A DNA stretch of 64,000 nucleotides from Bacteroidota bacterium (GCA_963169295.1 CAUJDD010000104.1:1085-65084); one strand, 5' to 3'. Numbered from the stretch's first letter, positions 23,116-53,211 are shown. Notes: generated by a model not told the origin, from the sequence alone. Made by a program: numbers and translations.

Positions 23116-25077
23116 TTATCTTGAGATAATTAGTTTTTGTGAACTAACGTTTATAGAACTTCCTTTAATTTGCACAAAATACACACCATTCTTTAAATTA
23201 GAAATAGGTATTATACTGTTTTGGTTAGTTAATTCTTCATTTAATACAATCTCCCCTAACACGTTTACAATTTGTACACTAGCCTGTTTTAATTCAGCTA
23301 TAAAAGGAGTATTAATATTTAGTAATTCATTAGCTGGGTTGGGATACATTGTGAATATTTCCTTTTGATGTTCTTTTATTCCAATGGTTAAATCGGCACA
23401 ACCCATTACTGGGTTAATCATTAAAGAACCATCAATAGAAGATTGTACCCAACTACCACTTACGTTATAATACAAAGCATCTTTATGATTTGTGTTTCTG
23501 TCAAATCCAATATTTAAACCTTGCGAGGTGGTTTGTATAAGTCCAATAAAATAAGTACCAGCCGAAAGAGGTAAACAAGAGGTAAGTTTATAATTAGCAA
23601 ATAAATTATACTCGCCCGATGTAAAAATTGGATTAGTAAGAGAATCTTTATAAATGACGTTTCCAGGTTTCCCGCTTCCATCTTGACTCCACACGGTTAT
23701 TCTAAACGAAGATCCTTGCACTAATCCGTTTTTAATAATAGGATCAAAATAAATTTTTACTGATTTTAAAGTGTCGTTATAATTCAAGGTAAAACGCATA
23801 GCTGTTTTAGCACCGTAGCTGTTTAAGTAATAAGCTTGTTCGGCACTACCATCATCGTAAGCATAATAATCATAAAATTTCTGAAGGTGTACTAATGTGT
23901 CGTTTTCTTTTCTAATATCGCCCGGCACATTGGTAATGGAGTGTTTGATGGAGAAATTAGTTGGTACACTTAGCGTGGATGTAAATGGATATAATGTAAA
24001 CACAGGACAGGCCGCTACACCATCGGTGCAATTAAAATAACCGTGATTTAAATAACTGTATGAGGGAATACCAGGGTTATTAATGGTAACATACACGTCT
24101 GTAGGAATGGTGTTCCCCGATTCATCTTTCACAGTGTAAGCATATTGCCCAGATAAGGCACCTGTGTTACTGCTTGATGTTCCTGGATTATTATTTCTAA
24201 TAAAGTTCTTAAACCCAGTTCCTTTTTCAGTAGCAGGATTATACTGGCGGTAAGGTATTGTAGAATAATTTTTTAAAAATGAAGTAGGCATATACGAAAA
24301 CGTAACATCTACTAACACCGTGTCATCATAAAAATATTGATCTTTTAACGTTACATAATCAATATGCCAATGGTCAACACTACCGCTGGTGGTGGCTTGA
24401 TTCCTGAATCGAAATTTAAATCCATCGTGAAAATAAGCGGTGTCTGTTACACCAACTCTCACTCTATAAAAAGTAGTATCGCTTGACGAAGGGTTGTAAC
24501 CAGCCTTTCCCCACACTTTTTTCCAAAGATTTAATAAGGGCATATAAAAATCCAAACATAAAGAGTCATCTGGTTCAGGAGCATCGCCAAATCCTTCGGC
24601 TTGATAGTAAAAGGTTAAAAATACACTATCCGATGGTTGATAATAATAAGTTGTAGAACTTGAAGTTTGAATAGAATACAAATTAATAGGCAATGAAGTA
24701 AGCGTATCTGCGGAGTACGACATTCCCTCGTTGGCCGAGAAATTATAAGGATAACCCAATTTATTAAGCCCCTCAAATGTTGCCACACCAAGGCTTATGG
24801 GTTGAATAGCAAAACCAGTATTAATATACACATTAGAATCTGCCCACAATGAGGCGCTTGGAAAAGGTGTTTTATAAGCATACGAAAAATCATCAAAAAA
24901 AGGCAGTTGTAATGATGTTGTAGTAGTTGTTTTTTGAGCTAATGTCTTGTCTAATTTTTGATTTTGTAGAATAGCATTTCCGCTTAATGGCACTAATTGT
25001 TCTTGAGCTATAAAGCCAAAAAAAGAAAACAACATGATACTTAATAAAACAGATCTTTTCAATTTATTCATACTCAT
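23116..25077 (-). CDS. Secreted protein of unknown function with a type-A T9SS C-terminal domain
   Basis: Has a signal peptide (LLSIMLFSFFGFIAQ). The C-terminus is FTMYPNPANELLNINT...GVYFVQIKGSSINVSSQKLIISR. The start overlaps the upstream PASTA gene stop by 4 nt. Confidence 0.75.
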   Translation of the reverse strand: MSMNKLKRSVLLSIMLFSFFGFIAQEQLVPLSGNAILQNQKLDKTLAQKTTTTTSLQLPFFDDFSYAYKTPFPSASLWADSNVYINTGFAIQPISLGVATFEGLNKLGYPYNFSANEGMSYSADTLTSLPINLYSIQTSSSTTYYYQPSDSVFLTFYYQAEGFGDAPEPDDSLCLDFYMPLLNLWKKVWGKAGYNPSSSDTTFYRVRVGVTDTAYFHDGFKFRFRNQATTSGSVDHWHIDYVTLKDQYFYDDTVLVDVTFSYMPTSFLKNYSTIPYRQYNPATEKGTGFKNFIRNNNPGTSSSNTGALSGQYAYTVKDESGNTIPTDVYVTINNPGIPSYSYLNHGYFNCTDGVAACPVFTLYPFTSTLSVPTNFSIKHSITNVPGDIRKENDTLVHLQKFYDYYAYDDGSAEQAYYLNSYGAKTAMRFTLNYNDTLKSVKIYFDPIIKNGLVQGSSFRITVWSQDGSGKPGNVIYKDSLTNPIFTSGEYNLFANYKLTSCLPLSAGTYFIGLIQTTSQGLNIGFDRNTNHKDALYYNVSGSWVQSSIDGSLMINPVMGCADLTIGIKEHQKEIFTMYPNPANELLNINTPFIAELKQASVQIVNVLGEIVLNEELTNQNSIIPISNLKNGVYFVQIKGSSINVSSQKLIISR

Positions 25078-25765: not shown

Positions 25766-25954
25766 TTAGAGCCCCAAATGTTCCTTTAATTTAGTGTAAG
25801 ATGCCCGACTTAATGGTATTTTTTTGCCATTTTTTAGTAAAACCACATAGCTATTCTTTTCAAGCGGTTCTATTTTTGTAAGCTCTTGTAGGTTAATAAT
25901 AAATGAGCGGTGGGTTCTAAAAAATTTACTACTATCCATATATCTCAGTAGCAT
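25766..25954 (-). pseudogene. Remnant of a LytTR-family DNA-binding response regulator (only the C-terminal half of the LytTR domain)
   Basis: FFRTHRSFIINLQELTKIEP....VVLLKNGKKIPLSRASYTKLKEHL is the conserved C-terminal part of a LytTR domain. An in-frame TAG lies 6 codons upstream of the M, and I saw no receiver domain or first half of LytTR upstream. Confidence 0.7.
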
Positions 25955-26132: not shown

Positions 26133-26519
26133 TTATTTCCTATTTAGCATTAATTCCAAAACAGAAATACGTTTATCTTTTTCGAGCAATAATTTTTCGT
26201 AAAGTTCTTTTAATAATTTTACTTCGGTTTGATGGTATATGGTGTTTTCATATTTGCCTCCCTGCTGGTTGTTGCCGTTATTAAAAATAATAGTTGCATC
26301 AAAACCTAATATTTCCTGAGGCGTAACCGCTAATATTTTACTTATCTCATTTAATCTATTAATAGTTAGTTGTGTTTCGCCACTTTCTATTTTACTATAG
26401 GCGCGTGTAGATAATCCAAGCTCCTGCGCCATATATTCTTGCGATAAATTTTTTAATTCTCTTATCTGCCTAATTTTTTCGTTTAAATTTTCTATCATCA
26501 TTTTACCTAAATAGTTCAA
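26133..26519 (-). CDS. XRE-family helix-turn-helix transcriptional regulator
   Basis: IRQIRELKNLSQEYMAQELGLSTRAYSKIESGETQLTINRLNEISKIL is a canonical HTH_3 motif. The C-terminus has coiled-coil character. The true start may be the internal MIENL. It is divergent from the precursor-peptide gene. Confidence 0.88.
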   Translation of the reverse strand: MNYLGKMMIENLNEKIRQIRELKNLSQEYMAQELGLSTRAYSKIESGETQLTINRLNEISKILAVTPQEILGFDATIIFNNGNNQQGGKYENTIYHQTEVKLLKELYEKLLLEKDKRISVLELMLNRK

Positions 26520-26599
26520 AAATAGTAAAAATAATTCAATATTTGAACTTAAAAATATATAATCTAATCAATTAAAAAATAAATTTGTTTTAGTTAGTT

Positions 26600-26621
26600 T
26601 TGTAATACTGCGCAGTTACAA
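26600..26621. promoter_or_regulatory. Imperfect inverted repeat (candidate operator) in the divergent XRE / precursor intergenic region
   Basis: The sequence is TTGTAA-ta-CTGC|GCAG-TTACAA. The core CTGCGCAG is a perfect palindrome flanked by 6-nt inverted arms with a 2-nt bulge, and it is GC-richer than its surroundings. A TAGTTTTG (TAnnTTTG-like -7 box) lies just upstream at about 26596-26603. Confidence 0.3.
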
Positions 26622-26684
26622 TTTTACGGGCGGAAACGAAAAGCCTGCGAATGCTATGAGTAGTAAAAATTTAACATAATTAAA

Positions 26685-26903
26685 ATGAGAAAATTTAAAA
26701 GATTAACTTTGGACCTGTTCAAAGGTTATGAATTAAAAAAAGAAAGCCATAATATGGTTTTAGGTGGTACTCAAGTGATGACTGGTAAGCCAGGAGGATG
26801 TCAATTACCAGACACTGCTGATGACAAAAGTAAAACCCCGAATGGCGGTGGCCCGGGCATACCTACATGGCCCAAAGAAGATATTACTGTGAATAGTAAG
26901 TAA
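26685..26903 (+). CDS. RiPP precursor peptide with a double-glycine (GG) leader
   Basis: 72 aa in total. The leader MRKFKRLTLDLFKGYELKKESHNMVLGG has Leu at -12, Val at -4 and GG at -2/-1. The 44-aa core TQVMTGKPGGCQLPDTADDKSKTPNGGGPGIPTWPKEDITVNSK is rich in Thr/Ser, Asp/Glu, Lys and Gly/Pro. It lies directly upstream of maturases and a C39 exporter. Confidence 0.8.
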   Translation: MRKFKRLTLDLFKGYELKKESHNMVLGGTQVMTGKPGGCQLPDTADDKSKTPNGGGPGIPTWPKEDITVNSK

Positions 26904-26928
26904 TGTTATTGTTGAATCCTAAATATAT

Positions 26929-26970
26929 AAAACTAAGTAGTAAATTAATGCGTTTACTGCTTAGTTTTTT
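26929..26970 (+). terminator. Strong hairpin with T-run (intrinsic terminator or attenuator) between the precursor gene and the maturase genes
   Basis: A 16-bp stem AAAACTAAGTAGTAAA / TTTACTGCTTAGTTTT with one G-U wobble, an 8-nt loop TTAATGCG, and a following TT that extends the T-run. The next ATG is at 26977. Confidence 0.75.
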
Positions 26971-26976
26971 ATGTAA

Positions 26977-27966
26977 ATGAAAAAAGCCGTCATATTTATT
27001 TATCTATGTTTTACTATAAAAAATTGTATAGCACAATTTGATAGTACTCATTATTACCTTAATTCATTACAATACAAAAAAAGTATAAATTACTTAAAAA
27101 GGGAAATTAAAAAAAACGCTTATATCAAGTATAAAAATGGCAATACAACCGCCAAAGATGTTGACGAGATTAATTTAGCTTGCATATATTCATTAAATAA
27201 TGAATATGATAACTGTTTAAAACAATTAAACACATTTGTTAAAAGTAAAACTAATAAAGATGGGTTTTATATTCCTAATAAATGGAGCAACTATGATTAT
27301 TATATTTCTTTCTACACTGATCCAGATTTTTATAGAGTCTCTGTGGCACGTCCAAATGAATGGAAATCTTTTCTAGTTAAGCATAAACATAAGTGTGAGA
27401 TAACGGATACGTTTTTTAGAAAATTAAATATTCCAGATAGCATTTATACTGCTTTAATTCAAATAGGCATAAACGACCAAGCTCATTATCGTGAGATATT
27501 ATTTTATGAAGATAAATATGGTTCACAATCGTCAACAGCTTTAAAATTATGGAAAGAGAAGGATAGTTTAAATAAAGCAAATTTGAAAACTGTTATGTAT
27601 TATTTAGATAGTGGCTATAATGTTTTATCTGATTCGGTAGTTGGTAACTTTTCAAATAAATGTTTTTTAGTTATACAACATGCCGACTTGAAAACACAAG
27701 AAAAAATATTACCTCTAATAAAAAAATTATATGAACAAAAAAAGATACAAGGTAGTAACTATGCGCTGCTTTTTGATAGAATATCAGTTGATAAAAATAA
27801 TGGTACGCAGTTTTATGGTACCCAAATAAACAGTAAAACCAATCAACCATTTTTTATTAAAGATGAAGTAAATGTAGATAAACGGCGTGCAGAATTTGGA
27901 ATGGAATCTATGGCTGATTACTGTAAACGATTTAATATAATTTATAAGCCAAAAAAAACAAAGTGA
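26977..27966 (+). CDS. Secreted protein of unknown function (DUF6624-like C-terminal region)
   Basis: Has the signal peptide MKKAVIFIYLCFTIKNCIAQ. The C-terminal block CFLVIQHADLKTQEKILPLIKKLYEQKKIQGSNYALLFDRISVDKNNGTQFYGTQ resembles what I remember of DUF6624 proteins, but this was not verified. Confidence 0.55.
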   Translation: MKKAVIFIYLCFTIKNCIAQFDSTHYYLNSLQYKKSINYLKREIKKNAYIKYKNGNTTAKDVDEINLACIYSLNNEYDNCLKQLNTFVKSKTNKDGFYIPNKWSNYDYYISFYTDPDFYRVSVARPNEWKSFLVKHKHKCEITDTFFRKLNIPDSIYTALIQIGINDQAHYREILFYEDKYGSQSSTALKLWKEKDSLNKANLKTVMYYLDSGYNVLSDSVVGNFSNKCFLVIQHADLKTQEKILPLIKKLYEQKKIQGSNYALLFDRISVDKNNGTQFYGTQINSKTNQPFFIKDEVNVDKRRAEFGMESMADYCKRFNIIYKPKKTK

Positions 27967-28925
27967 TCCTAATACTTTCAACAGAGAAAGAACTCTTAAC
28001 TCAAAACGTAATAAATTGGCTTCTATATTATAATATAGAATTCAAACGATTTAATGATGGCGATATAACAAATCCTGAGATTAATATTTCAAATAATACA
28101 ATTAAGATAAATTTCATCGATCAGAATGAATGTAGTATCGATTCATTAACAAAATATTGGTATAGAAGAGGATATTTAGACTTTACCAATAGCTTACTAA
28201 TTGGTGATAACGATATGATTATTGAAATAAATAAACACAAAACCGATAATGATAATGACATTATTAATTATATACATTATTATCTGCAAACAAATGTCAG
28301 CAACGTAAATAGTTTTAATGATAATTCTTTAAATAAATTAACTGAACTTACTGTGGCGCGGAAATTAGGAATTAAAATCCCCGATACTTTAATAACCACT
28401 AATAAAAATTCAGTTCTATCTTTTATAATTAAACATAAAAAAGTTATTACAAAACCAATAAAAAGGGCATTAAATTTTAAAATTGAAGGGGTGAATTTTT
28501 ATACTGAAACACATTTACTAACAGCTAACGATGTAATGAATTATCCTAATAACTTCTCGCCTATTAAACTACAAAATTATATTGAAAAAGCATTTGAATT
28601 AAGAGTGTTTTATTTAGATGGAGTATTTTACTCCTCAGCAATTTTTTCACAGAATGATGAACAAACAAAAATTGATTTTAGAAATTATAATGAATCGAAT
28701 CCAAATAGAGTCTTACCGTTTAATATGCCAAAAACTGAAGAAGCAAAATTTAGAAAGTTGATGAAAGCATTAAACCTTAATTCAGGCTCATTAGATATTA
28801 TTGTAACCAAGGATGGTGAATATGTCTTTTTAGAAGTAAATCCAGTAGGTCAATTTACTCAAGTTTCTTTTCCGTGCAATTATTATTTAGAAAAACAAAT
28901 GGCAATAAGCCTATCAAAACGATAA
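27963..28925 (+). CDS. ATP-grasp peptide maturase (RimK/MvdC-D-like; grasp-with-SPASM system type)
   Basis: GTG start overlapping the upstream stop. ATP-grasp blocks are NKLTELTVARKLGIKIPDTLIT, VITKPI, ELRVFYLDG, IDFRNY and GSLDIIVTKDGEYVFLEVNPVGQF. Confidence 0.82.
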   Translation: MILILSTEKELLTQNVINWLLYYNIEFKRFNDGDITNPEINISNNTIKINFIDQNECSIDSLTKYWYRRGYLDFTNSLLIGDNDMIIEINKHKTDNDNDIINYIHYYLQTNVSNVNSFNDNSLNKLTELTVARKLGIKIPDTLITTNKNSVLSFIIKHKKVITKPIKRALNFKIEGVNFYTETHLLTANDVMNYPNNFSPIKLQNYIEKAFELRVFYLDGVFYSSAIFSQNDEQTKIDFRNYNESNPNRVLPFNMPKTEEAKFRKLMKALNLNSGSLDIIVTKDGEYVFLEVNPVGQFTQVSFPCNYYLEKQMAISLSKR

Positions 28926-28926
28926 T

Positions 28927-29133
28927 ATGGAACCGTATAAACTAATAGAGCAAGCATCGTTGAATCAAATAAACAAACTACCTATTACTTACAAAAAAAT
29001 GGCAAGTTCAACCGATTTGAATTCACCAATAAGTATCATATCTGATACAATATTTGTAAAAAGTACAAGACATCAAACGCCTTTTTTTGGAGGAATTCGA
29101 TTTTACAAAAACATTGAAATATTCATAATCTAA
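28927..29133 (+). CDS. 68-aa hypothetical protein embedded between the two maturase genes
   Basis: The ORF fills the ATP-grasp/SPASM gap exactly, with a 1-nt spacer on each side, suggesting translational coupling. I recognised no motif. Confidence 0.5.
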   Translation: MEPYKLIEQASLNQINKLPITYKKMASSTDLNSPISIISDTIFVKSTRHQTPFFGGIRFYKNIEIFII

Positions 29134-29134
29134 A

Positions 29135-30256
29135 ATGATAAATAAAAATTATTGTGTAACAACAACTTGCTTTCCTATTAAAGGTTTTCTAAGAACTGCT
29201 ATATATGATTTGCCAAAAGCTACTTATGAATTTGTACCTAATGCGGTTCATGATTTTTTGAGACTACTCTCACAAAAATCATTTTCTCAAATCTATAGAA
29301 ATACTACTGAAGAGAATAAAACATATTTAAGTGAATATTTTCAATATTGCCTAGAGAAAGAATATATATTAGAAATCCCTAATGAGATTAATAAAAAACA
29401 TTTTCCAAAACTAAATTTAAATTTTGAGTTTCCAAGTATAATATCCAATTTAGTTATAAGAGTTAATAAAGATCTTGATTTTGAAAAGATTAAAGATATA
29501 CTTGTTTCTTTAAAATGTTTTAATATTCAATTAATAACTGACTCTACATTTGATATAAATAAAATTGAACAATACTTAGATGTAATTAAAGACATTGGTC
29601 TACATTCTATTGAACTTATAGTGGCATATAGCCCTGGTATTAACTATGAATTATTAACTAACAAATATAAAAACATTGCGTTTATCTTTATTTATTCTGC
29701 ACCTGTTAACAAATTTATTAAAAGACATGTTTTAGGTTTACAACAAATATTTACTTCAAAAAACAAGTTTGAAATCACTCATATTAAATCGTTAGATTTT
29801 TTTAACGTAAATATAACTTTGTTTACAGAATCACAACTACATAATACATATTTTAATCGTAAACTATTCATAGGAGATAAGGGGGAAATTAAAAATTCGA
29901 TAGAGTCACCGACAGAATTTGGAAATATAAATAATCTAAAGCAACCCGACGATATCTTAAAAATTATAAATTCGATTGAATTTCAAAAATATTGGTTTAT
30001 ACATAAAGGTATAATAGATGTATGTAAACAATGTGAGTTTCGGTATATGTGTGTTGATAATAGAATACCGTTACAACGCAACGAAAAAGAATGGTATTTC
30101 GATACAGAATGTAATTATAACCCCTATATTGCGAAATGGCGTGGCGAAAAAGGATACAAGACTTTATCAGAATGTGGTGTTACATCAAACCAAGAGGGCT
30201 TTAAGTTAAATCGCAAAAAAATAAACACAATAAATAAAGAATTGTGGGGCGATTAA
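29135..30256 (+). CDS. SPASM/twitch-like domain peptide maturase lacking the canonical radical-SAM CxxxCxxC motif
   Basis: The C-terminal Cys cluster is G-IIDV-C-KQ-C-EFRYM-C, then 19 residues to a Cys, then 20 residues to another Cys. The N-terminus has only C7 and C12 (CVTTTC), and no CxxxCxxC occurs anywhere in the 373 aa. Confidence 0.7.
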   Translation: MINKNYCVTTTCFPIKGFLRTAIYDLPKATYEFVPNAVHDFLRLLSQKSFSQIYRNTTEENKTYLSEYFQYCLEKEYILEIPNEINKKHFPKLNLNFEFPSIISNLVIRVNKDLDFEKIKDILVSLKCFNIQLITDSTFDINKIEQYLDVIKDIGLHSIELIVAYSPGINYELLTNKYKNIAFIFIYSAPVNKFIKRHVLGLQQIFTSKNKFEITHIKSLDFFNVNITLFTESQLHNTYFNRKLFIGDKGEIKNSIESPTEFGNINNLKQPDDILKIINSIEFQKYWFIHKGIIDVCKQCEFRYMCVDNRIPLQRNEKEWYFDTECNYNPYIAKWRGEKGYKTLSECGVTSNQEGFKLNRKKINTINKELWGD

Positions 30257-32439
30257 GTTTTACTCATTATAAACAACCCGATGAAATGGCCTGTGGCGCA
30301 ACTTGTTTGCGCATGATTGCCAAGCACTACGGTAAGTCCATCTCATTGCCTGATATAGTTCAACTAAGCGGAACCACAAGAGAGGGGGTTAACTTACTAG
30401 GTATAAGTGAAGCTTCTGAAAGGCTAGGATTTAGAACACTAGGAGTAAAAGTCCCATTTGATAAATTAATTGAAAATGCCCCCTTGCCATGTATTGCGCA
30501 TTGGAATCAAAACCATTTTGTTGTAATTTATAAAATTAAGGCTGATAAAATTTATATTGCAGACCCTGCACACGGTTTATTAACGTATAACAAAGTAGAT
30601 TTTTTAAAAGCATGGGTGAGCGATGGTAAAGATGAGGGGATTTTATTACTATTTGAAACCACTCCCGAATTTTACACAGAGGATAAAAGTCTTTCAAACG
30701 AGAAGCAAAAAAACAATTTTTCTTTTTTATACACCTATTTAATTAAACATAAAAAAGCCATAATACAACTCTTTATTGGTTTAATGGCAGGTAGCCTGTT
30801 ACAGCTTATCTTCCCATTTTTAACGCAAAGCATTATTGATATTGGTGTTCAAAATAAAGACATAAACTTTATCTACTTAATTCTCTTAGCTCAATTAATG
30901 GTGTTTTTTGGCAGAACTACCATCGATGTCATAAGAAGTTATATACTAATGCACGTTAGCAGCCGAATTAATATCTTGCTGGCAAGTGATTTTTTTGTAA
31001 AACTCATGAAGTTACCTATACGGTACTTTGACACTAAGATGACAGGGGACATCATGCAACGCATAAATGATAATCACAGGATTGAAAATTTTTTAACTGG
31101 CTATTCACTAAATACACTATTTTCATTGTTTAATTTTATCATATTTAGTGGAGTTTTAGCTTGGTATAGCTTAAAAATATTTTTAGTTTTTTTGATTGGC
31201 TCTGTTATCTATTTTATTTGGATAACCTTTTTTTTAAAACGCCGTGCCGATCTAGATTTTAAACGTTTTCAGCAAAGTAGCCAAAACCAAAGTAAGGTAA
31301 TGGAACTCATTAACGGAATGCAGGAAATTAAACTACACAATGCCGAACGGCAAAAGCGTTGGCAATGGGAGAACCTACAAACCAAATTATTTAAGATTAA
31401 CTTAAAGGGACTTTCTTTAACCACCGCCCAAAACTCAGGCTCACAATTAATTAACGAACTTAAAAACATTATTATCACTTTTTTATCAGCCAAATTAGTA
31501 CTTGACGGTCAAGTTACCTTAGGCATGATGCTTTCTATAAGTTATATCATCGGTCAGTTAAATAGTCCTGTAAACGAAATGGTGCATTTTATTCAGCAAT
31601 GGCAAGATGCTAAATTAAGTTTGGAGCGTTTAGGAGAAATTCATAACAAAGAGGATGAAGAACCTAATGGTAAAGAAAAAATTTCAGAAATTGAACAAAA
31701 CAGTTCATTTCACCTAAATAACCTTACGTTTAAATATGAGGGCGTAGGAAATGATGCTGTTCTATACGATTTAAGCGTTTCCATTCCGTCCAATAAAATT
31801 ACAGCCATAGTTGGAAGTAGTGGTAGTGGTAAAACAACCTTATTAAAACTCTTACTAAAATTCTATGAACCTACGCATGGAGAAATAAAATTAAACGAAA
31901 TAAATCTTAATCATTTATCAGCACAAACATGGCGAAATAAATGCGGTGTTGTAATGCAAGAGGGGTATATTTTTAATGATACCATCGCCAACAATATAGC
32001 TGTTGGAGTAGATGTTGTAGATAGAGATAAATTAAAACATGCTGTTAATGTAGCTAATATTAAAGAGTTTATAGAAAGCCTACCTTTAGGATATAATACT
32101 AAAATAGGCATGGAAGGTATTGGTATTAGTACAGGGCAAAAGCAAAGAATTTTAATTGCTAGAGCCGTTTACAAAAACCCTGATTATTTATTTTTTGATG
32201 AAGCTACAAGTGCTTTAGATGCTAATAATGAAAAAATAATAATGGAAAATTTAAACGAATTCTTTAAAGGTAAAACGGTTGTGATTATTGCCCATCGTTT
32301 AAGTACAGTTAAAAATGCTGACCAAATTATTGTTTTGGATAGAGGTAAGATTATTGAAAAAGGTAATCATATCGAATTGACACTAATTAAGGGGGCATAT
32401 TACGAACTTGTGAAAAATCAATTAGAATTAGGAAACTGA
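30244..32439 (+). CDS. Peptide cleavage/export ABC transporter with an N-terminal C39 (double-glycine) peptidase domain
   Basis: The C39 catalytic context is QPDEMACGATCLRMIAKHYG, with HWNQNHFVVIY (His) and ADPA. A 6-TM domain follows. Walker A is GSSGSGKTT, the signature motif is STGQKQR and Walker B is LFFDEATSALD. The start codon is GTG. Confidence 0.92.
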   Translation: MGRLSFTHYKQPDEMACGATCLRMIAKHYGKSISLPDIVQLSGTTREGVNLLGISEASERLGFRTLGVKVPFDKLIENAPLPCIAHWNQNHFVVIYKIKADKIYIADPAHGLLTYNKVDFLKAWVSDGKDEGILLLFETTPEFYTEDKSLSNEKQKNNFSFLYTYLIKHKKAIIQLFIGLMAGSLLQLIFPFLTQSIIDIGVQNKDINFIYLILLAQLMVFFGRTTIDVIRSYILMHVSSRINILLASDFFVKLMKLPIRYFDTKMTGDIMQRINDNHRIENFLTGYSLNTLFSLFNFIIFSGVLAWYSLKIFLVFLIGSVIYFIWITFFLKRRADLDFKRFQQSSQNQSKVMELINGMQEIKLHNAERQKRWQWENLQTKLFKINLKGLSLTTAQNSGSQLINELKNIIITFLSAKLVLDGQVTLGMMLSISYIIGQLNSPVNEMVHFIQQWQDAKLSLERLGEIHNKEDEEPNGKEKISEIEQNSSFHLNNLTFKYEGVGNDAVLYDLSVSIPSNKITAIVGSSGSGKTTLLKLLLKFYEPTHGEIKLNEINLNHLSAQTWRNKCGVVMQEGYIFNDTIANNIAVGVDVVDRDKLKHAVNVANIKEFIESLPLGYNTKIGMEGIGISTGQKQRILIARAVYKNPDYLFFDEATSALDANNEKIIMENLNEFFKGKTVVIIAHRLSTVKNADQIIVLDRGKIIEKGNHIELTLIKGAYYELVKNQLELGN

Positions 32440-33740
32440 TGCCATCTATAGAAGAAAAGGAAATAATTTTGCGTTCAGAAGAAGTAAATGAGATATTGAC
32501 TTCAACACCGAAATGGATTTTACGCTGGGGTATTTTAGTTGTTTTTATATTGATTATTATAACTATTGGACTTTCATATTTTATTAAATACCCAGATGTA
32601 TTGACTGCTGATGTTACTTTGACTACATTAAATCCACCAATAACATTAGTTTCAAAAAATAATGGAAAACTTACCCATCTTTTAGTGAAAGATAAACAAT
32701 TGGTAAGCCAAAATGAACCGATTGGTATTATAGAGAACACAGCCGATTACAAAGCTGTACTTTCTTTATTGGCAAACTGCAATCAATTAAACGAACAATT
32801 AAAATTAAACGACACACTTAATAATGTTTTAATTAAAGATAGTTTAAGAACTGGAGAAATTACACCTTACTACTTACAATTTTTAAAATCAGTCAAAGAC
32901 CTTAATCTTTATGAAAGCATTAATCCTTACACTAAACAAATTGCATTATTGAAAAAAGATTTAGGACATTACAATTCTTTGCTTGATAATTATAAGCATC
33001 AACAAAAAATTAACGATGAACAATTAAAGTTAGCTGAAAATGACTTTAATCGGGATAAAAAATTATTTGAAGAAAGGGCAATATCAGCAAGGGAATTTGA
33101 AATACAAAAGAAAAATTATTTAGGTGCTCAAAACAGTAATGAACAAACTAAGATTACAATTTCAAATGCACTAATTCAAATTAATGGAATTGAAAAGAAC
33201 ATCTTACAGTTACAAATACAAGATTATCAAGAAAAGGCGAAACTTAAAAATGAATTATCACAGTATTTAAAAACGCTCATTAATGAAATTAATAAATGGA
33301 AGCAGTTATATGTAATTGAAAGCCCTGTGAGTGGGAAAGTATCGTTTTTTAATGTATGGGCAATCAATCAAAACATCAAACAAGGTGATGAGCTTTTTGC
33401 TATCATTCCTAATAAGAAACAGCAATTTATAGGAAAATGTGTTTTGCCAATAACCAATAGTGGGAAATTAACCATTGGACAAGTTGTAAACATAAAACTT
33501 GACAATTATCCTTATAATGAAAATGGGATGTTAACAGGGGTTGTAAAAAACATTTCCGAAGTGCCTAATAAAGATAGTTATGCAGTTGATATTGTTTTAG
33601 CGAATGGCTTAACAACTTCGTACAATAAAACTCTAGTATATAAAGAACAAATGAAGGGCAAAGCAGATATTATAACGAAAAATATATCCGTTTTAGATAG
33701 AGTATTTTTTAATTTTCGTAAACTAACAGAAATAAAGTAA
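32439..33740 (+). CDS. HlyD-family membrane-fusion/secretion adaptor protein
   Basis: An N-terminal TM helix (WGILVVFILIIITIGLSYFI) is followed by a long coiled-coil middle region and a C-terminal beta-barrel-like region. The start overlaps the ABC gene stop. Confidence 0.85.
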   Translation: MPSIEEKEIILRSEEVNEILTSTPKWILRWGILVVFILIIITIGLSYFIKYPDVLTADVTLTTLNPPITLVSKNNGKLTHLLVKDKQLVSQNEPIGIIENTADYKAVLSLLANCNQLNEQLKLNDTLNNVLIKDSLRTGEITPYYLQFLKSVKDLNLYESINPYTKQIALLKKDLGHYNSLLDNYKHQQKINDEQLKLAENDFNRDKKLFEERAISAREFEIQKKNYLGAQNSNEQTKITISNALIQINGIEKNILQLQIQDYQEKAKLKNELSQYLKTLINEINKWKQLYVIESPVSGKVSFFNVWAINQNIKQGDELFAIIPNKKQQFIGKCVLPITNSGKLTIGQVVNIKLDNYPYNENGMLTGVVKNISEVPNKDSYAVDIVLANGLTTSYNKTLVYKEQMKGKADIITKNISVLDRVFFNFRKLTEIK

Positions 33741-33765
33741 TTGACCTTTAGTAAAAAACAAATCT

Positions 33766-39877: not shown

Positions 39878-42800
39878 ATGAAAAAACTATATACACTTCT
39901 GTTTTCAATACTGTTTGTAGCAACATTTGCTCAAACTTTCATTCTGCCATCTACAGGTGTACAAAACACTTATAGTGGAGGATGTCCAGTTGGTACCTGC
40001 TCAGGAACCTTATTAGACCCAGGAGGTGCAGGAAATTACCCTAATAATGTCAATCAAATTTATCAAGTGTTTTGTCCAACCACACCAGGAACATGTATTC
40101 AAGCCACTTTCACAAGCTTTAATACAGAGCTGGGTTATGACTTTTTAACAATAGGAAATGGCCCTGCACAAAATAGTGCAGTTTTTACGGGTGCGCCAGC
40201 AAACGCATCCGGTCAAATTTGGGGAACTCCCACAGTACCTTTTAGTTATACAGCAAATAATAGTTCAGGATGTTTAACCTTTAGGTTTAATTCTGATGCA
40301 ACCGTTAATAGACCCGGATTTACTGCCTCATTATCTTGTGTGCCTTGTGGTGCCGCTCAACCTGCCGGGAACTCTGATGCATGTGCCGCATCTTTTATTT
40401 GTTCAAATTTAGGATTTAATGATGTTTCATATGGTCCAGGTTTAAATCCAACCGAAGGCTGTGCCGGAAGTAGTTGTGTTACTGGAGAGACATATTCTAA
40501 CTGGTACACTTTTTCAGCCGCCACATCAGGTTCATTAACCTTTACAATTAACCCAAATACTGGTTCAGATGATTTTGATTATGCAATATTTGGCCCGAAT
40601 GTTTCTTGTGGTGCATTAGGAAATCCTCTAAGGTGTTCTTATGCTGCAAATACTGGAAATACTGGACTTGGAAATGGGGCTCTTGATACTTCAGAAGATG
40701 TTACGGGTAATGGCTGGACTTCACCTATGACAGTAACCGCTGGCCAAACTTACATGTTAATGATAAACAATTGGACAGCAGGTGGAGCGGGATTTAATAT
40801 TTTATTTGGAGGTACTGCAACACTTGGCGTATTAGCCCCCGCAGTATCTTCAACTTCAATTTGCGCAGGTCAAAGCGCTGTATTAACTGCTACACCAGCT
40901 ACACCTGGAGGAACTTATACTTGGTCGCCAGGTGGCGCAAATACTCAATCCATTTCTGTATCACCAGGATCTACTACTTCTTATTCGGTGGTTTATGCTC
41001 AAGGTGGATGCACAAGCCCAGCTTCTGCTTTAGCAACCGTTACTGTAAACTCCGTTCCAACTGCAAATGCTGGTACAACAAAAACTATTACTTGTGCAAA
41101 TCCAACAGCTACATTAACCGGTTCTGGTGGTGGTAGTTATGCTTGGAATGGACCAGGTATCGTGTCTGGTGGAACTTCAGCTAATCCTGTTGTAAATGCA
41201 CCTGGAACCTATAGTTTAAATGTAACATCACCCCAAGGCTGCACATCATCAGTTGCAACCGTTGCTATTTCACAAAACACAACCACTCCATCTCCTACAG
41301 CCAATCATACCGGAACCTTAACCTGTTCTAATGGCACTGTTGCATTAACTGGTTCACCTTCAAGCGGTGTAACTTACCAATGGAGTGGGCCAGGATTTAG
41401 TGGCGGAACTACCTCTCAAAATGCTATAGCAACTGCTCCTGGTACTTATACTTTAAGGGTAACCGACGCAGTAAATGGTTGTACCGCAACTGCCGTTACT
41501 ACTGTTACACAAAACACAGCAACACCTGTGGTTACGGGTGCAAGTACAGCAACTCTAACTTGTGCGTCAAATACACTTAATCTTAATGCAACTACCGCTG
41601 CAACACCTGTTAGTTATAATTGGAACGGACCAGGAATAGTTTCGGGAGTCGGCACTGGTACAATTACAATTAATCAACCTGGTACTTATAACTATACCGT
41701 TACTAATACTTCAAATGGTTGTGTAACCACTGGCACAAGATCAGTAACTCAAAATACGACCGCTCCAGTTGTAAATGGTTCTGTAACTGGAACATTATCT
41801 TGTGTTAACAATACTGTAAATATAACTGCTACAACAGCCGCAAGTCCTGTAAATTATAGTTGGAATGGACCAGGTATAGTAAGTGGTTCTTCAACTGGCA
41901 CGATTACCGTAAACCAACCAGGCACCTATAATTATACTGTAACAAATATTTCCAATGGTTGTTTTACTACGGGCTCTCAAACTGTTACTCAAAGTGCCGG
42001 ATTACCTGTAGTAAATGCTTCAACTTCGGGTACACTCAGTTGTACAACCACTTCGCTAACGGTAAGTGCTACTACTACAAGTTCACCTGTTAGTTATAAC
42101 TGGAACGGACCAGGAATAGTTTCAGGTACTGGTACAGGCACTATTACTGTAAATCAACCTGGTACTTATAACTACACTGTTACTAATACTTCAAATGGTT
42201 GTAGCACAACTGGATCGCAAGCTGTATCAAGTAACACCACAGTGGTAAATGCCAATGCTTCTAGTAGTGGTTCAATTACTTGTGCAACAAATAACGTAAC
42301 CCTTACCGCTACTCCAACCGGAACGAATTTCAATTATAGCTGGACAGGTCCAGGTACCATTACTAATGGAACTACTGATTCACCTAGTGTAGATGCAGGA
42401 GGAAATTATGTGGTTACAGTAACTAATAGCACTAATGGTTGTTTTGATACATTCACAATTTCAGTATCTACAAATACAACTGTTCCAATTTTAAGTTTAG
42501 CAGCTAATTCATTAACGACTACCTGTACAACTTCTACTGTTATGCTAAATGCTTCTTCAAATACAGATCCGAACTCTGCTTATAGTTGGACAGTTTCATC
42601 AGGAGGATCATTAAGTAGTACCACGGTTAATAATCCAACCGCATTAAGTGGTGGTATTTATGATGTAGTAGTTACTAATACAGTTAATGGGTGTGTTTCT
42701 TCGATGCAAACAGTAACTGTAACTGCTGATGCCAATATTCCTACTTATACACTTTCAGCAACGGATGTAACATTAACTTGTATTTCATCAAGTGAAACAG

Positions 42801-44209
42801 TAACACTTACAACCACACCTACGCCATTAAATTATACTTGGTCACCATCACCAGCAAGTGGTGTAAACTCTACCATACCAACATTTAATACAGCAGGTGT
42901 TTATACTTGTGTTATTACAAATACTGTAAATAACTGTAGTACAACCGCCCAAGTAACCGTGAGTAGTAATACAACCATTCCAAGTGTTACAATCTCAGGA
43001 ACACAAACATTAACCTGCGCATCTCCAACTGCTGCTATTACACTAACAACTACTCCAGCAAGTGGATTAACTTATAATTGGACAGGAGGTACCATTGTTT
43101 CTGGACAAGGAACCGATAACATAACTGTTAACCAAGCAGGAAACTATACAGTTACAGTTACTGATGCTGTAAATGGTTGCACAACCACCGCAAATACTCA
43201 GATATTTGCTGATACAAATGTACCAAGCGCTTCTGTCTCTGCAAGTACTAATAGTATCATTACTTGTGTGAATAATACCGTAACTCTAACAGCTACAGTT
43301 ACTCCAAGCGCAACCTATTCTTACACTTGGTCGCCTAGTGGAAATACATCTGTTTCTGAAAATGTTACTTCAGCTGGTATTTACACAGTTACTGTTTTAA
43401 ACGCATCAACTGGATGTACTGCTACTGCTCAATTTACAGTTACAAACAACATAACAGCTCCAAATGTTACTAGCTCAAATACAACAACACCTTGTGGTTC
43501 ACCTTCGGTGACTTTATTAGCTAGTTCCACAAACACCAATGTTTCTTATTCTTGGTCGGCATCGTCAGGAACAATTCTTTCAGGTAGTAATACCGCTAAC
43601 CCAATTGCTGGAGGAGCCGGACAATATGTAGTTACTGTAACAGACAATGATAATGGTTGTACAAATTCACAAACAATAACCGTTACAACAACCAGTATCA
43701 CTTCATCGTTCTCGGTTGATCCAACAAGTGGTTCAGCGCCATTAACTGTAAACTTTACAGATCAAAGTAGTGGTACTGGTAATACTTATTCTTGGAACTT
43801 TGGTGATGATAACAACAACACTTCCTCTTCAGCTAATCCAAGCCACGTGTATAACACAACTGGAGATTACACGGTTACACTTACTGTAACAGACGCATCA
43901 GGCTCATGTTCATCAACCTCAACTGTAGTTATAAATGTATTTGATAATGCAAGTATTACAGTTCCAAATGTATTTACGCCAAATGGTGATAGCAAAAACG
44001 ATGTGTTTAAAATTATTACAACAGGCATTGAGGAACTTCATTGTGATATCTTTAACCGCTGGGGAACTAAGGTTGCTAGCCTTGAAGGAACAAACGCTAT
44101 TTGGGATGGAAATAACGCTAAAGATGGTACCTATTTCTTTATCTTAACAGCAAAAGGTTATGATGATAAAGAATATAAACAACAAGGATACATAAACTTG
44201 TTTAGATAA
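39878..44209 (+). CDS. Giant cell-surface adhesin-like protein with an N-terminal CUB-like domain, about 13 Ig-like repeats, a PKD domain and a type-B T9SS (gliding-motility-associated, CHU_C) C-terminal domain
   Basis: Has a signal peptide. The CUB-like segment is GTLLDPGGAGNYPNNVNQIYQVFCP...GYDFLTIGNG...LTFRFNSDATVNRPGFTASL. Repeated roughly 80-aa units follow the pattern TLTC....V.L.A......Y.W.GPG......G.Y.VTVT...NGC. The PKD-like block is PLTVNFTDQSSGTGNTYSWNFGDD...HVYNTTGDYTVTLTVTD. The C-terminus is VPNVFTPNGDSKNDVFKI...DGTYFFILTAKG...GYINLFR. Confidence 0.85.
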   Translation: MKKLYTLLFSILFVATFAQTFILPSTGVQNTYSGGCPVGTCSGTLLDPGGAGNYPNNVNQIYQVFCPTTPGTCIQATFTSFNTELGYDFLTIGNGPAQNSAVFTGAPANASGQIWGTPTVPFSYTANNSSGCLTFRFNSDATVNRPGFTASLSCVPCGAAQPAGNSDACAASFICSNLGFNDVSYGPGLNPTEGCAGSSCVTGETYSNWYTFSAATSGSLTFTINPNTGSDDFDYAIFGPNVSCGALGNPLRCSYAANTGNTGLGNGALDTSEDVTGNGWTSPMTVTAGQTYMLMINNWTAGGAGFNILFGGTATLGVLAPAVSSTSICAGQSAVLTATPATPGGTYTWSPGGANTQSISVSPGSTTSYSVVYAQGGCTSPASALATVTVNSVPTANAGTTKTITCANPTATLTGSGGGSYAWNGPGIVSGGTSANPVVNAPGTYSLNVTSPQGCTSSVATVAISQNTTTPSPTANHTGTLTCSNGTVALTGSPSSGVTYQWSGPGFSGGTTSQNAIATAPGTYTLRVTDAVNGCTATAVTTVTQNTATPVVTGASTATLTCASNTLNLNATTAATPVSYNWNGPGIVSGVGTGTITINQPGTYNYTVTNTSNGCVTTGTRSVTQNTTAPVVNGSVTGTLSCVNNTVNITATTAASPVNYSWNGPGIVSGSSTGTITVNQPGTYNYTVTNISNGCFTTGSQTVTQSAGLPVVNASTSGTLSCTTTSLTVSATTTSSPVSYNWNGPGIVSGTGTGTITVNQPGTYNYTVTNTSNGCSTTGSQAVSSNTTVVNANASSSGSITCATNNVTLTATPTGTNFNYSWTGPGTITNGTTDSPSVDAGGNYVVTVTNSTNGCFDTFTISVSTNTTVPILSLAANSLTTTCTTSTVMLNASSNTDPNSAYSWTVSSGGSLSSTTVNNPTALSGGIYDVVVTNTVNGCVSSMQTVTVTADANIPTYTLSATDVTLTCISSSETVTLTTTPTPLNYTWSPSPASGVNSTIPTFNTAGVYTCVITNTVNNCSTTAQVTVSSNTTIPSVTISGTQTLTCASPTAAITLTTTPASGLTYNWTGGTIVSGQGTDNITVNQAGNYTVTVTDAVNGCTTTANTQIFADTNVPSASVSASTNSIITCVNNTVTLTATVTPSATYSYTWSPSGNTSVSENVTSAGIYTVTVLNASTGCTATAQFTVTNNITAPNVTSSNTTTPCGSPSVTLLASSTNTNVSYSWSASSGTILSGSNTANPIAGGAGQYVVTVTDNDNGCTNSQTITVTTTSITSSFSVDPTSGSAPLTVNFTDQSSGTGNTYSWNFGDDNNNTSSSANPSHVYNTTGDYTVTLTVTDASGSCSSTSTVVINVFDNASITVPNVFTPNGDSKNDVFKIITTGIEELHCDIFNRWGTKVASLEGTNAIWDGNNAKDGTYFFILTAKGYDDKEYKQQGYINLFR
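41524..42243 (+). repeat. Three consecutive, highly similar 240-bp (80-aa) tandem repeats inside the adhesin gene
   Basis: The units start at about 41524, 41764 and 42004. They share long near-identical DNA stretches, for example AATTGGAACGGACCAGGAATAGTTTC and AATCAACCTGGTACTTATAACTA...ACTAATACTTCAAATGGTTGT. Protein units share SYNWNGPGIVSG.GTGTIT(V/I)NQPGTYNYTVTN(T/I)SNGC. Confidence 0.85.
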
Positions 44210-52842: not shown

Positions 52843-52944
52843 TGCACAGGTTTAGTTAATTGGTTAAACAAATACACAAAAAGCCAGGGAAAAAGAAATA
52901 GTCATTTCTTTGAACCTCGTTTTTTATGCGAAAACAAAATTCAA

Positions 52945-53069
52945 ACTGATTTGGCAGGTAATCTGACTTTGGTTTATTATACCATTCACAGTTGCGCAAC
53001 AGTTCAGGAATTTCACCTGATTCCCCTATTCTCTGTTTATTCAGTACTTATTTAAACAGCCAACTCAGT
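52945..53069 (-). promoter_or_regulatory. Cobalamin (B12) riboswitch aptamer in the nrdB-nrdA leader
   Basis: The minus strand reads AATAGGGGAATCAGGTGAAATTCCTGAACTGTTGCGCAACTGTGAATGG ... AAGTCAGATTACCTGCC. The first part matches the conserved core AAnAGGGAAnnnGGTGnAAnTCCnnnnCnGnnnnGCnACTGT. The second matches the B12 box rAGYCMGgAgaCCkGCc. A closing P1 helix forms between ACTGAGTTGGC (53069-53059) and GCCAAATCAGT (52955-52945), 11 bp with 1 mismatch. A P2-like hairpin CTGTTTA...TAAACAG lies at 53059-53033. Confidence 0.75.
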
Positions 53070-53211
53070 AATCATTCGGTGGTAAAAATAATTTAAATTT
53101 TAAAAGTTGATAGTTGTATGATAATTTTTAATTATTCACAGATGTTCATTGTTATACACACTTGTTGAAATCGAAGCTAAACTGGTGATTTATATACTAT
53201 TATGAATTTCT

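Follow-up and report, generated by a model that had tools for sequence, protein, structure and literature searches.

Within a 64,000-nucleotide stretch of DNA from a Bacteroidota bacterium (GCA_963169295.1, CAUJDD010000104.1:1085-65084; this whole stretch is hereafter designated the window), we found that positions 26685-33740 very probably hold a functional, horizontally mobile grasp-with-SPASM cassette for a peptide made on ribosomes and modified after translation (RiPP). The cassette encodes a double-glycine (GG) precursor peptide, a secreted protein with tetratricopeptide-repeat (TPR) and DUF6624 regions, an ATP-grasp peptide ligase (GwsG), a small protein of the LPL family (ORF68), a SPASM-family protein (GwsS), a C39-peptidase ABC transporter, and a HlyD-family adaptor. 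As judged from its sequence, GwsS cannot be a canonical radical S-adenosylmethionine (SAM) enzyme. Systems of this kind are already catalogued in Bacteroidota, and the window provides another member; new here are the absence of the radical-SAM motif throughout the family, the restriction of the conserved Cys residues in this clade to one auxiliary-cluster (Aux-II) set, the two-motif LPL protein, a probable attenuator hairpin, and the mobility of the cassette. Its genes are as follows.

26685-26903, + strand: precursor peptide gene (72 aa)
26977-27966, + strand: gene for the secreted TPR+DUF6624 protein (329 aa; "cluster 23" of Makarova et al.)
27963-28925, + strand: gene for the ATP-grasp peptide ligase GwsG (320 aa)
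28927-29133, + strand: LPL-family small open reading frame, ORF68 (68 aa)
29135-30256, + strand: gene for the SPASM-family protein GwsS (373 aa)
30244-32439, + strand: gene for the C39-peptidase ABC transporter (731 aa)
32439-33740, + strand: gene for the HlyD-family membrane-fusion adaptor (433 aa)

Gene identities and selection

An earlier note on this DNA had described seven tightly coupled open reading frames (ORFs) on the + strand, and all seven were recovered at the coordinates claimed for them, with junctions, in cassette order, of +73 (a gap containing a hairpin), -4, +1, +1, -13, and -1 nt. The assignments made in that note held as well. Thus, the 72-aa precursor is the single GG-leader candidate in the entire 64 kb; the 27963-28925 product, taken for an ATP-grasp ligase, scores 281.9 bits against TIGR04192 (cutoff, 230; model positions 1-316 of 318); and the 29135-30256 product, taken for a SPASM-like protein, scores 190.6 bits against TIGR04193 (cutoff, 175), these two models being the grasp-with-spasm families of NCBIfam that the note had named. 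The product described as a secreted DUF6624-like protein matches PF20329 with 51.8 bits (gathering score, 27). The exporter, too, is a C39-peptidase ABC protein with the architecture of a peptidase-containing ATP-binding cassette transporter (PCAT), with Pfam scores of 118.7 bits for Peptidase_C39, 118.8 bits for ABC_membrane, and 101.8 bits for ABC_tran and with the motifs QPDEMACG (containing the catalytic Cys), HFVV, and ADP recognized by inspection of the sequence; the HlyD adaptor scores 43.6 bits against HlyD_3 and 98.9 bits, below the cutoff, against TIGR01843.

Comparison with a relative that is 78% identical in DNA gave dN/dS values of 0.08-0.16 across the seven genes, including 0.13 for the precursor, 0.15 for the ATP-grasp ligase, and 0.16 for the 68-aa ORF. 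Because of these low values, all seven are regarded as real genes under selection; the cassette is intact, and each of its genes is under purifying selection. The biosynthetic half (26685-30256) has a GC content of 0.27 as against the window mean of 0.321, a value in the bottom 1% for segments of that length, in agreement with the earlier impression of an AT-rich stretch.

The ligase GwsG and its candidate substrate

The C-terminal region of GwsG (~190 aa) aligns with the graspetide synthetases MdnC (5ig9, 2.6e-24), AMdnB (7m4s, 8e-24), CdnC (7mgv, 9e-20), and MdnB (5ig8), the E values of such matches ranging from 1e-24 to 1e-18. It carries the DFR motif, which is critical for graspetide synthetases (PMC13097080), in the form KIDFRNY. 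The N-terminal ~120 aa are not alignable with enzymes of the MdnC/MdnB/CdnC type, and GwsG falls far under the cutoffs of the microviridin maturase models for MvdC and MvdD (TIGR04185 and TIGR04184; 124.7 versus 425 and 121.9 versus 475, respectively). GwsG is predicted from this homology to install macrolactone or macrolactam links, and it is the sole component of the cassette with a recognizable catalytic mechanism.

The precursor consists of a 28-aa leader, which contains an LFKGYE motif and ends at the cleavage site MVLGG/T, and of a 44-aa core in which Thr, Ser, Lys, Asp, and Glu abound. In its close relatives, the core DTADDKSKT...GGGxGxPTWPKEDIT is kept across internal PGG and NGGG motifs; therefore, these motifs belong to the core, and MVLGG/T is the cleavage site. 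GG precursors vary extremely from locus to locus among the 82 related loci (L-numbered) that made up our comparative set, and most of these loci encode GG-leader peptides with an LFxKFE-type motif 1-1.5 kb upstream of the grasp gene. The precursor of the window gave no NCBIfam match at E <= 10 and no Pfam match at E <= 0.01 in searches that included TIGR04139, TIGR04149, and PF14406. Most precursors of the Branch 5 loci described below are likewise missed by the published precursor models (Makarova et al., PMC8939145).

GwsS is a SPASM-family protein devoid of the radical-SAM motif

The CxxxCxxC motif of radical-SAM enzymes was found in none of the 193 unique family members, the GwsS of the window included, and the Pfam Radical_SAM model (PF04055) matched none of 51 GwsS family members at E <= 1. 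The SPASM-domain model TIGR04085 was matched by 42 of these 51 members and PF13186 by 6, the GwsS of the window itself reaching the SPASM domain only via TIGR04193. A few family members weakly match XyeB, YhhB, or GrrM, which are cyclophane-forming radical-SAM/SPASM maturases.

Four Cys residues of GwsS are universal in the family, namely C297, C300, C306, and C326, arranged as CX2CX5C plus a further Cys 20 residues on, a spacing that we take to correspond to the Aux-II ligands of the anSME structure. A fifth, C347, is kept in 80% of the family. The GwsS of the window thus has only four or five conserved Cys residues and not the seven of a complete SPASM motif, which would serve two auxiliary clusters. 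Extra Cys residues at positions resembling those of the other auxiliary cluster (Aux-I) occur in ~22-31% of the family, mostly in distant members, and are lacking in the window, where the aligned residues are T215, Y239, S255/S258, N309, and A333; the fourth Cys of an extended CX2CX5CX2C motif is present in 45 of 192 members. These extra columns look like a second, Aux-I-like cluster site that has been retained in some members and lost in the clade of the window.

In the AlphaFold2 model of GwsS (pLDDT, 93.9), residues 1-75 form four beta-strands followed by three helices, residues 78-207 form a short alpha/beta domain, much shorter than a radical-SAM barrel, and the C-terminus is Cys-rich. 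A Foldseek search with this model returned SuiB (5v1t, E = 8.8e-4) as the sole match in the Protein Data Bank (PDB) below 1e-3, with a poor global superposition (TM, 0.23), and when the SPASM profile was searched against PDB sequences, spurious designed-repeat matches but no radical-SAM/SPASM structures were returned. Because CxxxCxxC and Radical_SAM are absent and few Cys residues are kept, the usual Fe-S radical chemistry of SPASM-type proteins is not expected, and the "two maturase chemistries" of the earlier note did not withstand this analysis. GwsS appears to descend from a radical-SAM/SPASM maturase, putatively one with a RiPP recognition element (RRE), in which the catalytic cluster has been lost, and it is probably a single-[4Fe-4S] partner or scaffold.

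A two-motif LPL protein lies between GwsG and GwsS

An ORF of ~50-90 aa occupies the gap between the grasp and SPASM genes in 66 of 72 pairs. These gap ORFs share an N-terminal h-P-h-x-x..[F/W/L] motif, which resembles the leader helix of microviridins in its P-h-x-x..F/W portion, and a C-terminal [Y/H]-[Q/K]-T-x7-F-Y-K-P-I-S motif. Of 59 gap ORFs, 42 contain the two motifs in this order, compared with 23 of 1526 other small ORFs drawn from these loci as controls (odds ratio, 161; p = 5e-52). ORF68, which is separated from each neighbouring gene by 1 nt, carries them as KLPITYKKM and HQT-x7-RFYKNI, and its five relatives are conserved at both ends and variable in the middle. Because of the two motifs and the conserved ends of these relatives, ORF68 is assigned to the LPL family rather than left as an unknown.

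In rearranged loci, the LPL gene stays with the grasp gene in some cases (L025 and L026) and with the SPASM gene in others (L080 and L052). A Rosetta-stone search yielded one grasp-LPL fusion only, a 360-aa ATP-grasp ORF (L067, 6342-7424) with a C-terminal extension carrying LPL-like motifs (NPICAQF ... NLYKPLD), at whose stop codon the SPASM gene begins. This ORF could be a natural fusion or an assembly error. Collectively, the linkage pattern and the fusion fit a bridging role of LPL between the two larger proteins, without proving it.

The secreted TPR+DUF6624 protein

The signal peptide of this protein (MKKAVIFIYLCFTIKNCIA/Q) was assigned by eye only, and residue Q20 shows almost no variation. 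Its N-terminal region consists of TPR (E = 2.7e-10 against the consensus TPR), and the AlphaFold2 model (pLDDT, 88) is all-alpha, its C-terminal DUF6624 domain included. A Foldseek search of the PDB with this model returned generic TPR solenoids only, all with E > 0.01. The invariant polar residues are D167, Q168, Q234, H235, D267, R268, Q278, Q283, D296, R303, and R304. Of 61 grasp genes, 28 have a DUF6624-like gene directly upstream, and 41 have one anywhere in their locus. The nearest analogues of the protein are peptide-binding TPR proteins, and it could serve in immunity, as a chaperone, or as an enzyme of late tailoring; DUF6624 has also been named as a possible undiscovered class of biosynthetic enzyme (Carter et al.).

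Distribution, mobility, and previous descriptions

A scan of genome contigs with the ATP-grasp protein gave two loci only. Of the 68 SPASM genes in the comparative set that have enough upstream sequence, 64 are directly preceded by a grasp gene and the remaining 4 have one in another part of their locus; a transporter gene follows directly downstream of 13 of the 43 SPASM genes with enough flanking sequence. Six metagenomic loci (L063, L037, L073, L075, L038, and L060) contain two or three tandem grasp-LPL-SPASM modules, some each with its own DUF6624 gene, which suggests expansion by module duplication.

The closest relative of the cassette is an 8.5-kb unit that runs from an XRE gene through the HlyD gene and includes a downstream helix-turn-helix (HTH) gene (L083, 6619-15160; also L085 and L084). 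This unit is 99.99% identical in two genomic contexts and occurs also in a third, is bracketed by a ~285-bp repeat (L083, 6621-6906 and 15324-15605; 88.6% identical), and has IS110 or rve transposase genes nearby. The 78% identity to the window extends over exactly 26668-33742, beginning 17 nt before the ATG of the precursor gene; no cassette-flanking repeats were found in the window. Because the relative's cassette is mobile, and given the dip in GC content and the LytTR remnant described below, the evidence points to horizontal acquisition of the cassette.

The same gene set has been described as Branch 5 of a survey comprising 190 Bacteroidetes loci with an ATP-grasp protein, a TIGR04193 protein, a C39-ABC transporter, HlyD, and highly variable GG precursors, together with a "cluster 23" protein that is often predicted to be secreted and a small LPL protein, encoded in every case immediately upstream of SPASM and judged a non-precursor (PMC8939145). 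It also corresponds to graspetide Group 14 in a RODEO analysis (PMC13097080), and gwsG/gwsS operons have been reported on integrative and conjugative elements (ICEs) of P. gingivalis (preprint, bioRxiv 10.64898/2026.08.04.741601). A GwsS protein identical to that of the window is already in GenBank from a metagenome-assembled genome of Bacteroidia under the name grasp-with-spasm. The earlier note knew of no isolated product of such a system, and none was found in the literature searched; it went too far in calling this the most likely novel system of the window and in counting two unknown accessory proteins, as both the cluster 23 and LPL proteins belong to the Branch 5 description.

Regulatory elements and flanking genes

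The elements beside and within the upstream part of the cassette are as follows.

25766-25954, - strand: LytTR remnant, a 62-aa ORF with only the C-terminal half of the LytTR DNA-binding domain and no receiver domain
26133-26519, - strand: divergent XRE-type HTH regulator (Pfam HTH_3, 55.2 bits)
26520-26684, no strand: divergent intergenic region next to the XRE gene, presumed to contain the promoter(s)
26923-26974, + strand: stem-loop with a U-run behind it, immediately downstream of the precursor gene (RNA fold)

The stem-loop, located in the 73-nt gap after the precursor gene, has a 17-bp core and a folding energy of -22.1 kcal/mol (z = -7.4; 0 of 200 shuffles as stable) and is probably a leaky terminator or an attenuator. 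It is AT-rich and was overlooked by a promoter/terminator scan and detected by RNA folding. The sigma-70 promoter scan, whose model is unsuited to Bacteroidota, gave 56 promoter-like sites against 50.6 expected and thus no enrichment. The XRE gene is probably the regulator of the cassette. An XRE gene is present at the same divergent position in the relatives L083-L085; since the identity to these is only 33% over the HTH, the regulatory role is assigned from position.

The 62-aa LytTR ORF sits on the left border of the low-GC island and looks like a gene remnant. The claim that regulator genes flank the cassette was correct for the upstream side (XRE and the LytTR remnant) and incorrect for the downstream side, where the nearest gene encodes an OmpA/PD40/TPR protein. 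The surrounding genes are ordinary core genes (PASTA, a cargo protein of the type IX secretion system (T9SS), RluD, OmpA/PD40/TPR, and OppC). Just upstream of the island, the product of positions 23116-25077 (- strand) has 653 aa and includes a Por_Secre_tail domain for T9SS C-terminal sorting, which fits a Bacteroidota host. Elsewhere in the window, positions 39878-44209 (+ strand) encode a product of 1443 aa carrying PKD and CHU_C (type IX secretion) domains, its gene explaining a GC-rich patch (0.42-0.44 versus the mean of 0.32), and a cobalamin riboswitch (RF00174; 46.2 bits versus a gathering score of 31.5) is located at 52936-53079 (- strand).

Discussion

Alongside the observed gene identities, motifs, gene pairing, selection, and mobility, we infer all of the chemistry and all of the protein-protein interactions in the following scheme, which as a whole we favour with little more than even confidence. 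The precursor gene would be transcribed from the divergent region beside the XRE regulator, and the hairpin behind it would probably raise the level of precursor mRNA above that of the enzyme mRNA. From homology, GwsG would use ATP to close macrocycles through side-chain ester or amide links within the DTADDKSKT...TWPKEDIT region of the core, and GwsS and LPL would act as obligate, non-radical partners in substrate recognition, scaffolding, or ligase activation. They would be comparable in this respect to MirC in rosaritide, whose MirC-dependent synthesis provides a precedent for partner-protein-dependent graspetide synthetases (PMC13097080). The C39-ABC transporter would then cut after MVLGG and export the peptide together with HlyD, and the secreted TPR+DUF6624 protein would bind or process it outside the cytoplasm. 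In a bolder form of this scheme, which we regard as a tentative possibility only, GwsS would be a pseudo-enzyme that has lost the SAM cluster and, in this clade, also the Aux-I cluster while keeping an RRE-like domain and one Fe-S site, and it would constitute an obligate three-part complex with GwsG and with LPL, which would supply its helix motif, similar to that of the microviridin leader, in trans; the DUF6624 protein would serve as a new immunity or tailoring factor that binds peptides in the periplasm. If true, the three-part complex would represent a split mechanism of leader recognition or activation not yet described for any RiPP class.

Several observations weigh against the favoured scheme. 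The universal Cys residues and the fuller set that roughly one family member in four retains suggest that the Fe-S cluster matters and may be catalytic rather than structural, and a conserved Cys in the precursor core (C39) is a possible substrate of a second modification. Because a Pfam scan of 51 SPASM members gave no PqqD/RRE signal, the case for an RRE-like N-terminal domain in GwsS is drawn from the predicted topology and the weak Foldseek match. Moreover, the motif state of LPL showed no association with the Cys pattern of the SPASM protein (p = 0.79), the fusion in L067 would lose its bearing on the bridging role if it were an assembly error, and the literature searched yielded no structure, activity, or other biochemistry for any grasp-with-SPASM member.

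In an alternative reading, that of the earlier note, GwsS is a true second maturase, whose Fe-S cluster(s) would add a modification such as a thioether or another cross-link at Cys39 or Trp62 of the linear or already macrocyclized core, giving a product with two chemistries. The strict co-occurrence of GwsS with the ligase, the weak similarity to XyeB, YhhB, and GrrM, and the occurrence of a conserved Cys in many predicted cores (also noted in PMC8939145) speak for such an activity, as do the four universal Cys residues with their more complete SPASM-like set in some members. We nevertheless consider it unlikely: without CxxxCxxC or Radical_SAM anywhere in the family, the only well-understood chemistry associated with SPASM proteins is unavailable, the alpha/beta domain falls well short of a radical-SAM barrel, and the Aux-I-like Cys residues have been lost from the GwsS of the window.

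It is quite improbable that LPL is itself a substrate, that is, a second or cofactor precursor like PqqA or MftA, modified by GwsS and/or GwsG at its C-terminal HQT...FYK(P)I segment. Like the genes for PqqA and MftA, the LPL gene encodes a small protein immediately upstream of a SPASM-family gene, and the C-terminal motif is sharply conserved (Thr, Tyr, and Lys) behind a variable middle; however, LPL has neither a leader or cleavage motif nor a conserved acidic residue for ATP-grasp ligation, GwsS lacks the radical-SAM machinery that acts on PqqA and MftA, the substrate role is already filled by a GG precursor with a matching C39 exporter, and the assessment of LPL proteins in PMC8939145 was that they are not precursors. 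Still more improbable is that the GG peptide is an unmodified bacteriocin of class-II type, exported by C39-ABC/HlyD, while the grasp/LPL/SPASM trio acts on another target. The lack of matches to known graspetide precursor models, the extreme variability of the precursors between loci, and the low frequency of a transporter directly downstream of the SPASM gene (13 of 43) would be explained in this way, but GG peptides sharing a leader motif are found repeatedly in one fixed place upstream of the grasp gene in very divergent loci, conserved positions of their cores hold many donor and acceptor residues, and the genes are tightly coupled in translation within a cassette that moves as a unit.

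Comparison with known systems locates the cassette more closely. It agrees with other grasp-with-SPASM systems in the matching models, gene order, Bacteroidota host, and link to mobile DNA, and nothing essential differs; it has a single precursor, belonging to a small family outside the existing precursor models, and its GwsS is in a subclade without the Aux-I-like Cys residues. The P. gingivalis ICE loci, as described, include an outer-membrane component, whereas none is encoded in the cassette of the window. The microviridin and chryseoviridin pathways (MdnC/MdnB and CdnC) share with it the ATP-grasp domain, the DFR motif, and a precursor of leader and core with Thr/Ser/Lys and Asp/Glu; however, their leader carries a PFFARFL-type motif that the leader in the window lacks, a similar motif being found here on the separate LPL protein, and the window adds the SPASM and LPL partners. 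The rosaritide system (MirA/MirB/MirC) has, like the window, a strictly co-occurring non-ligase protein beside the synthetase (PMC13097080), which in that system carries a weakly RRE-like N-domain and is required for the ligase to be active and stable (PMC13097080). MirC, however, has a SurA/PpiC-like chaperone fold and comes from Actinomycetota, whereas the partners in the window are a SPASM-derived Fe-S protein and a protein of 50-90 aa, and the dependence of the ligase on them is putative. Finally, the maturases with RRE, radical-SAM, and SPASM parts (SuiB and XyeB/YhhB/GrrM) resemble GwsS in the CX2CX5C motif and in the predicted order of an RRE-like domain, an alpha/beta domain, and a Cys-rich C-terminus; GwsS departs from them in lacking CxxxCxxC and Radical_SAM, in its shortened alpha/beta domain, and in having Aux-II-like Cys residues only.

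Grasp-with-SPASM loci are widespread in Bacteroidota, with 190 in one survey, hundreds of metagenomic matches, and occurrences on mobile elements of Porphyromonas gingivalis, and the cassette of the window, being compact and intact, with a single precursor and under purifying selection, is a convenient experimental entry to them. As the radical-SAM motif is absent family-wide, attention is directed to the partner-dependence of the ligase and to a structural or novel role of the Fe-S site, rather than to radical chemistry of the thioether type. To our knowledge, the characterized graspetides are all protease inhibitors; because of this, the product of the cassette could be a new inhibitor scaffold.

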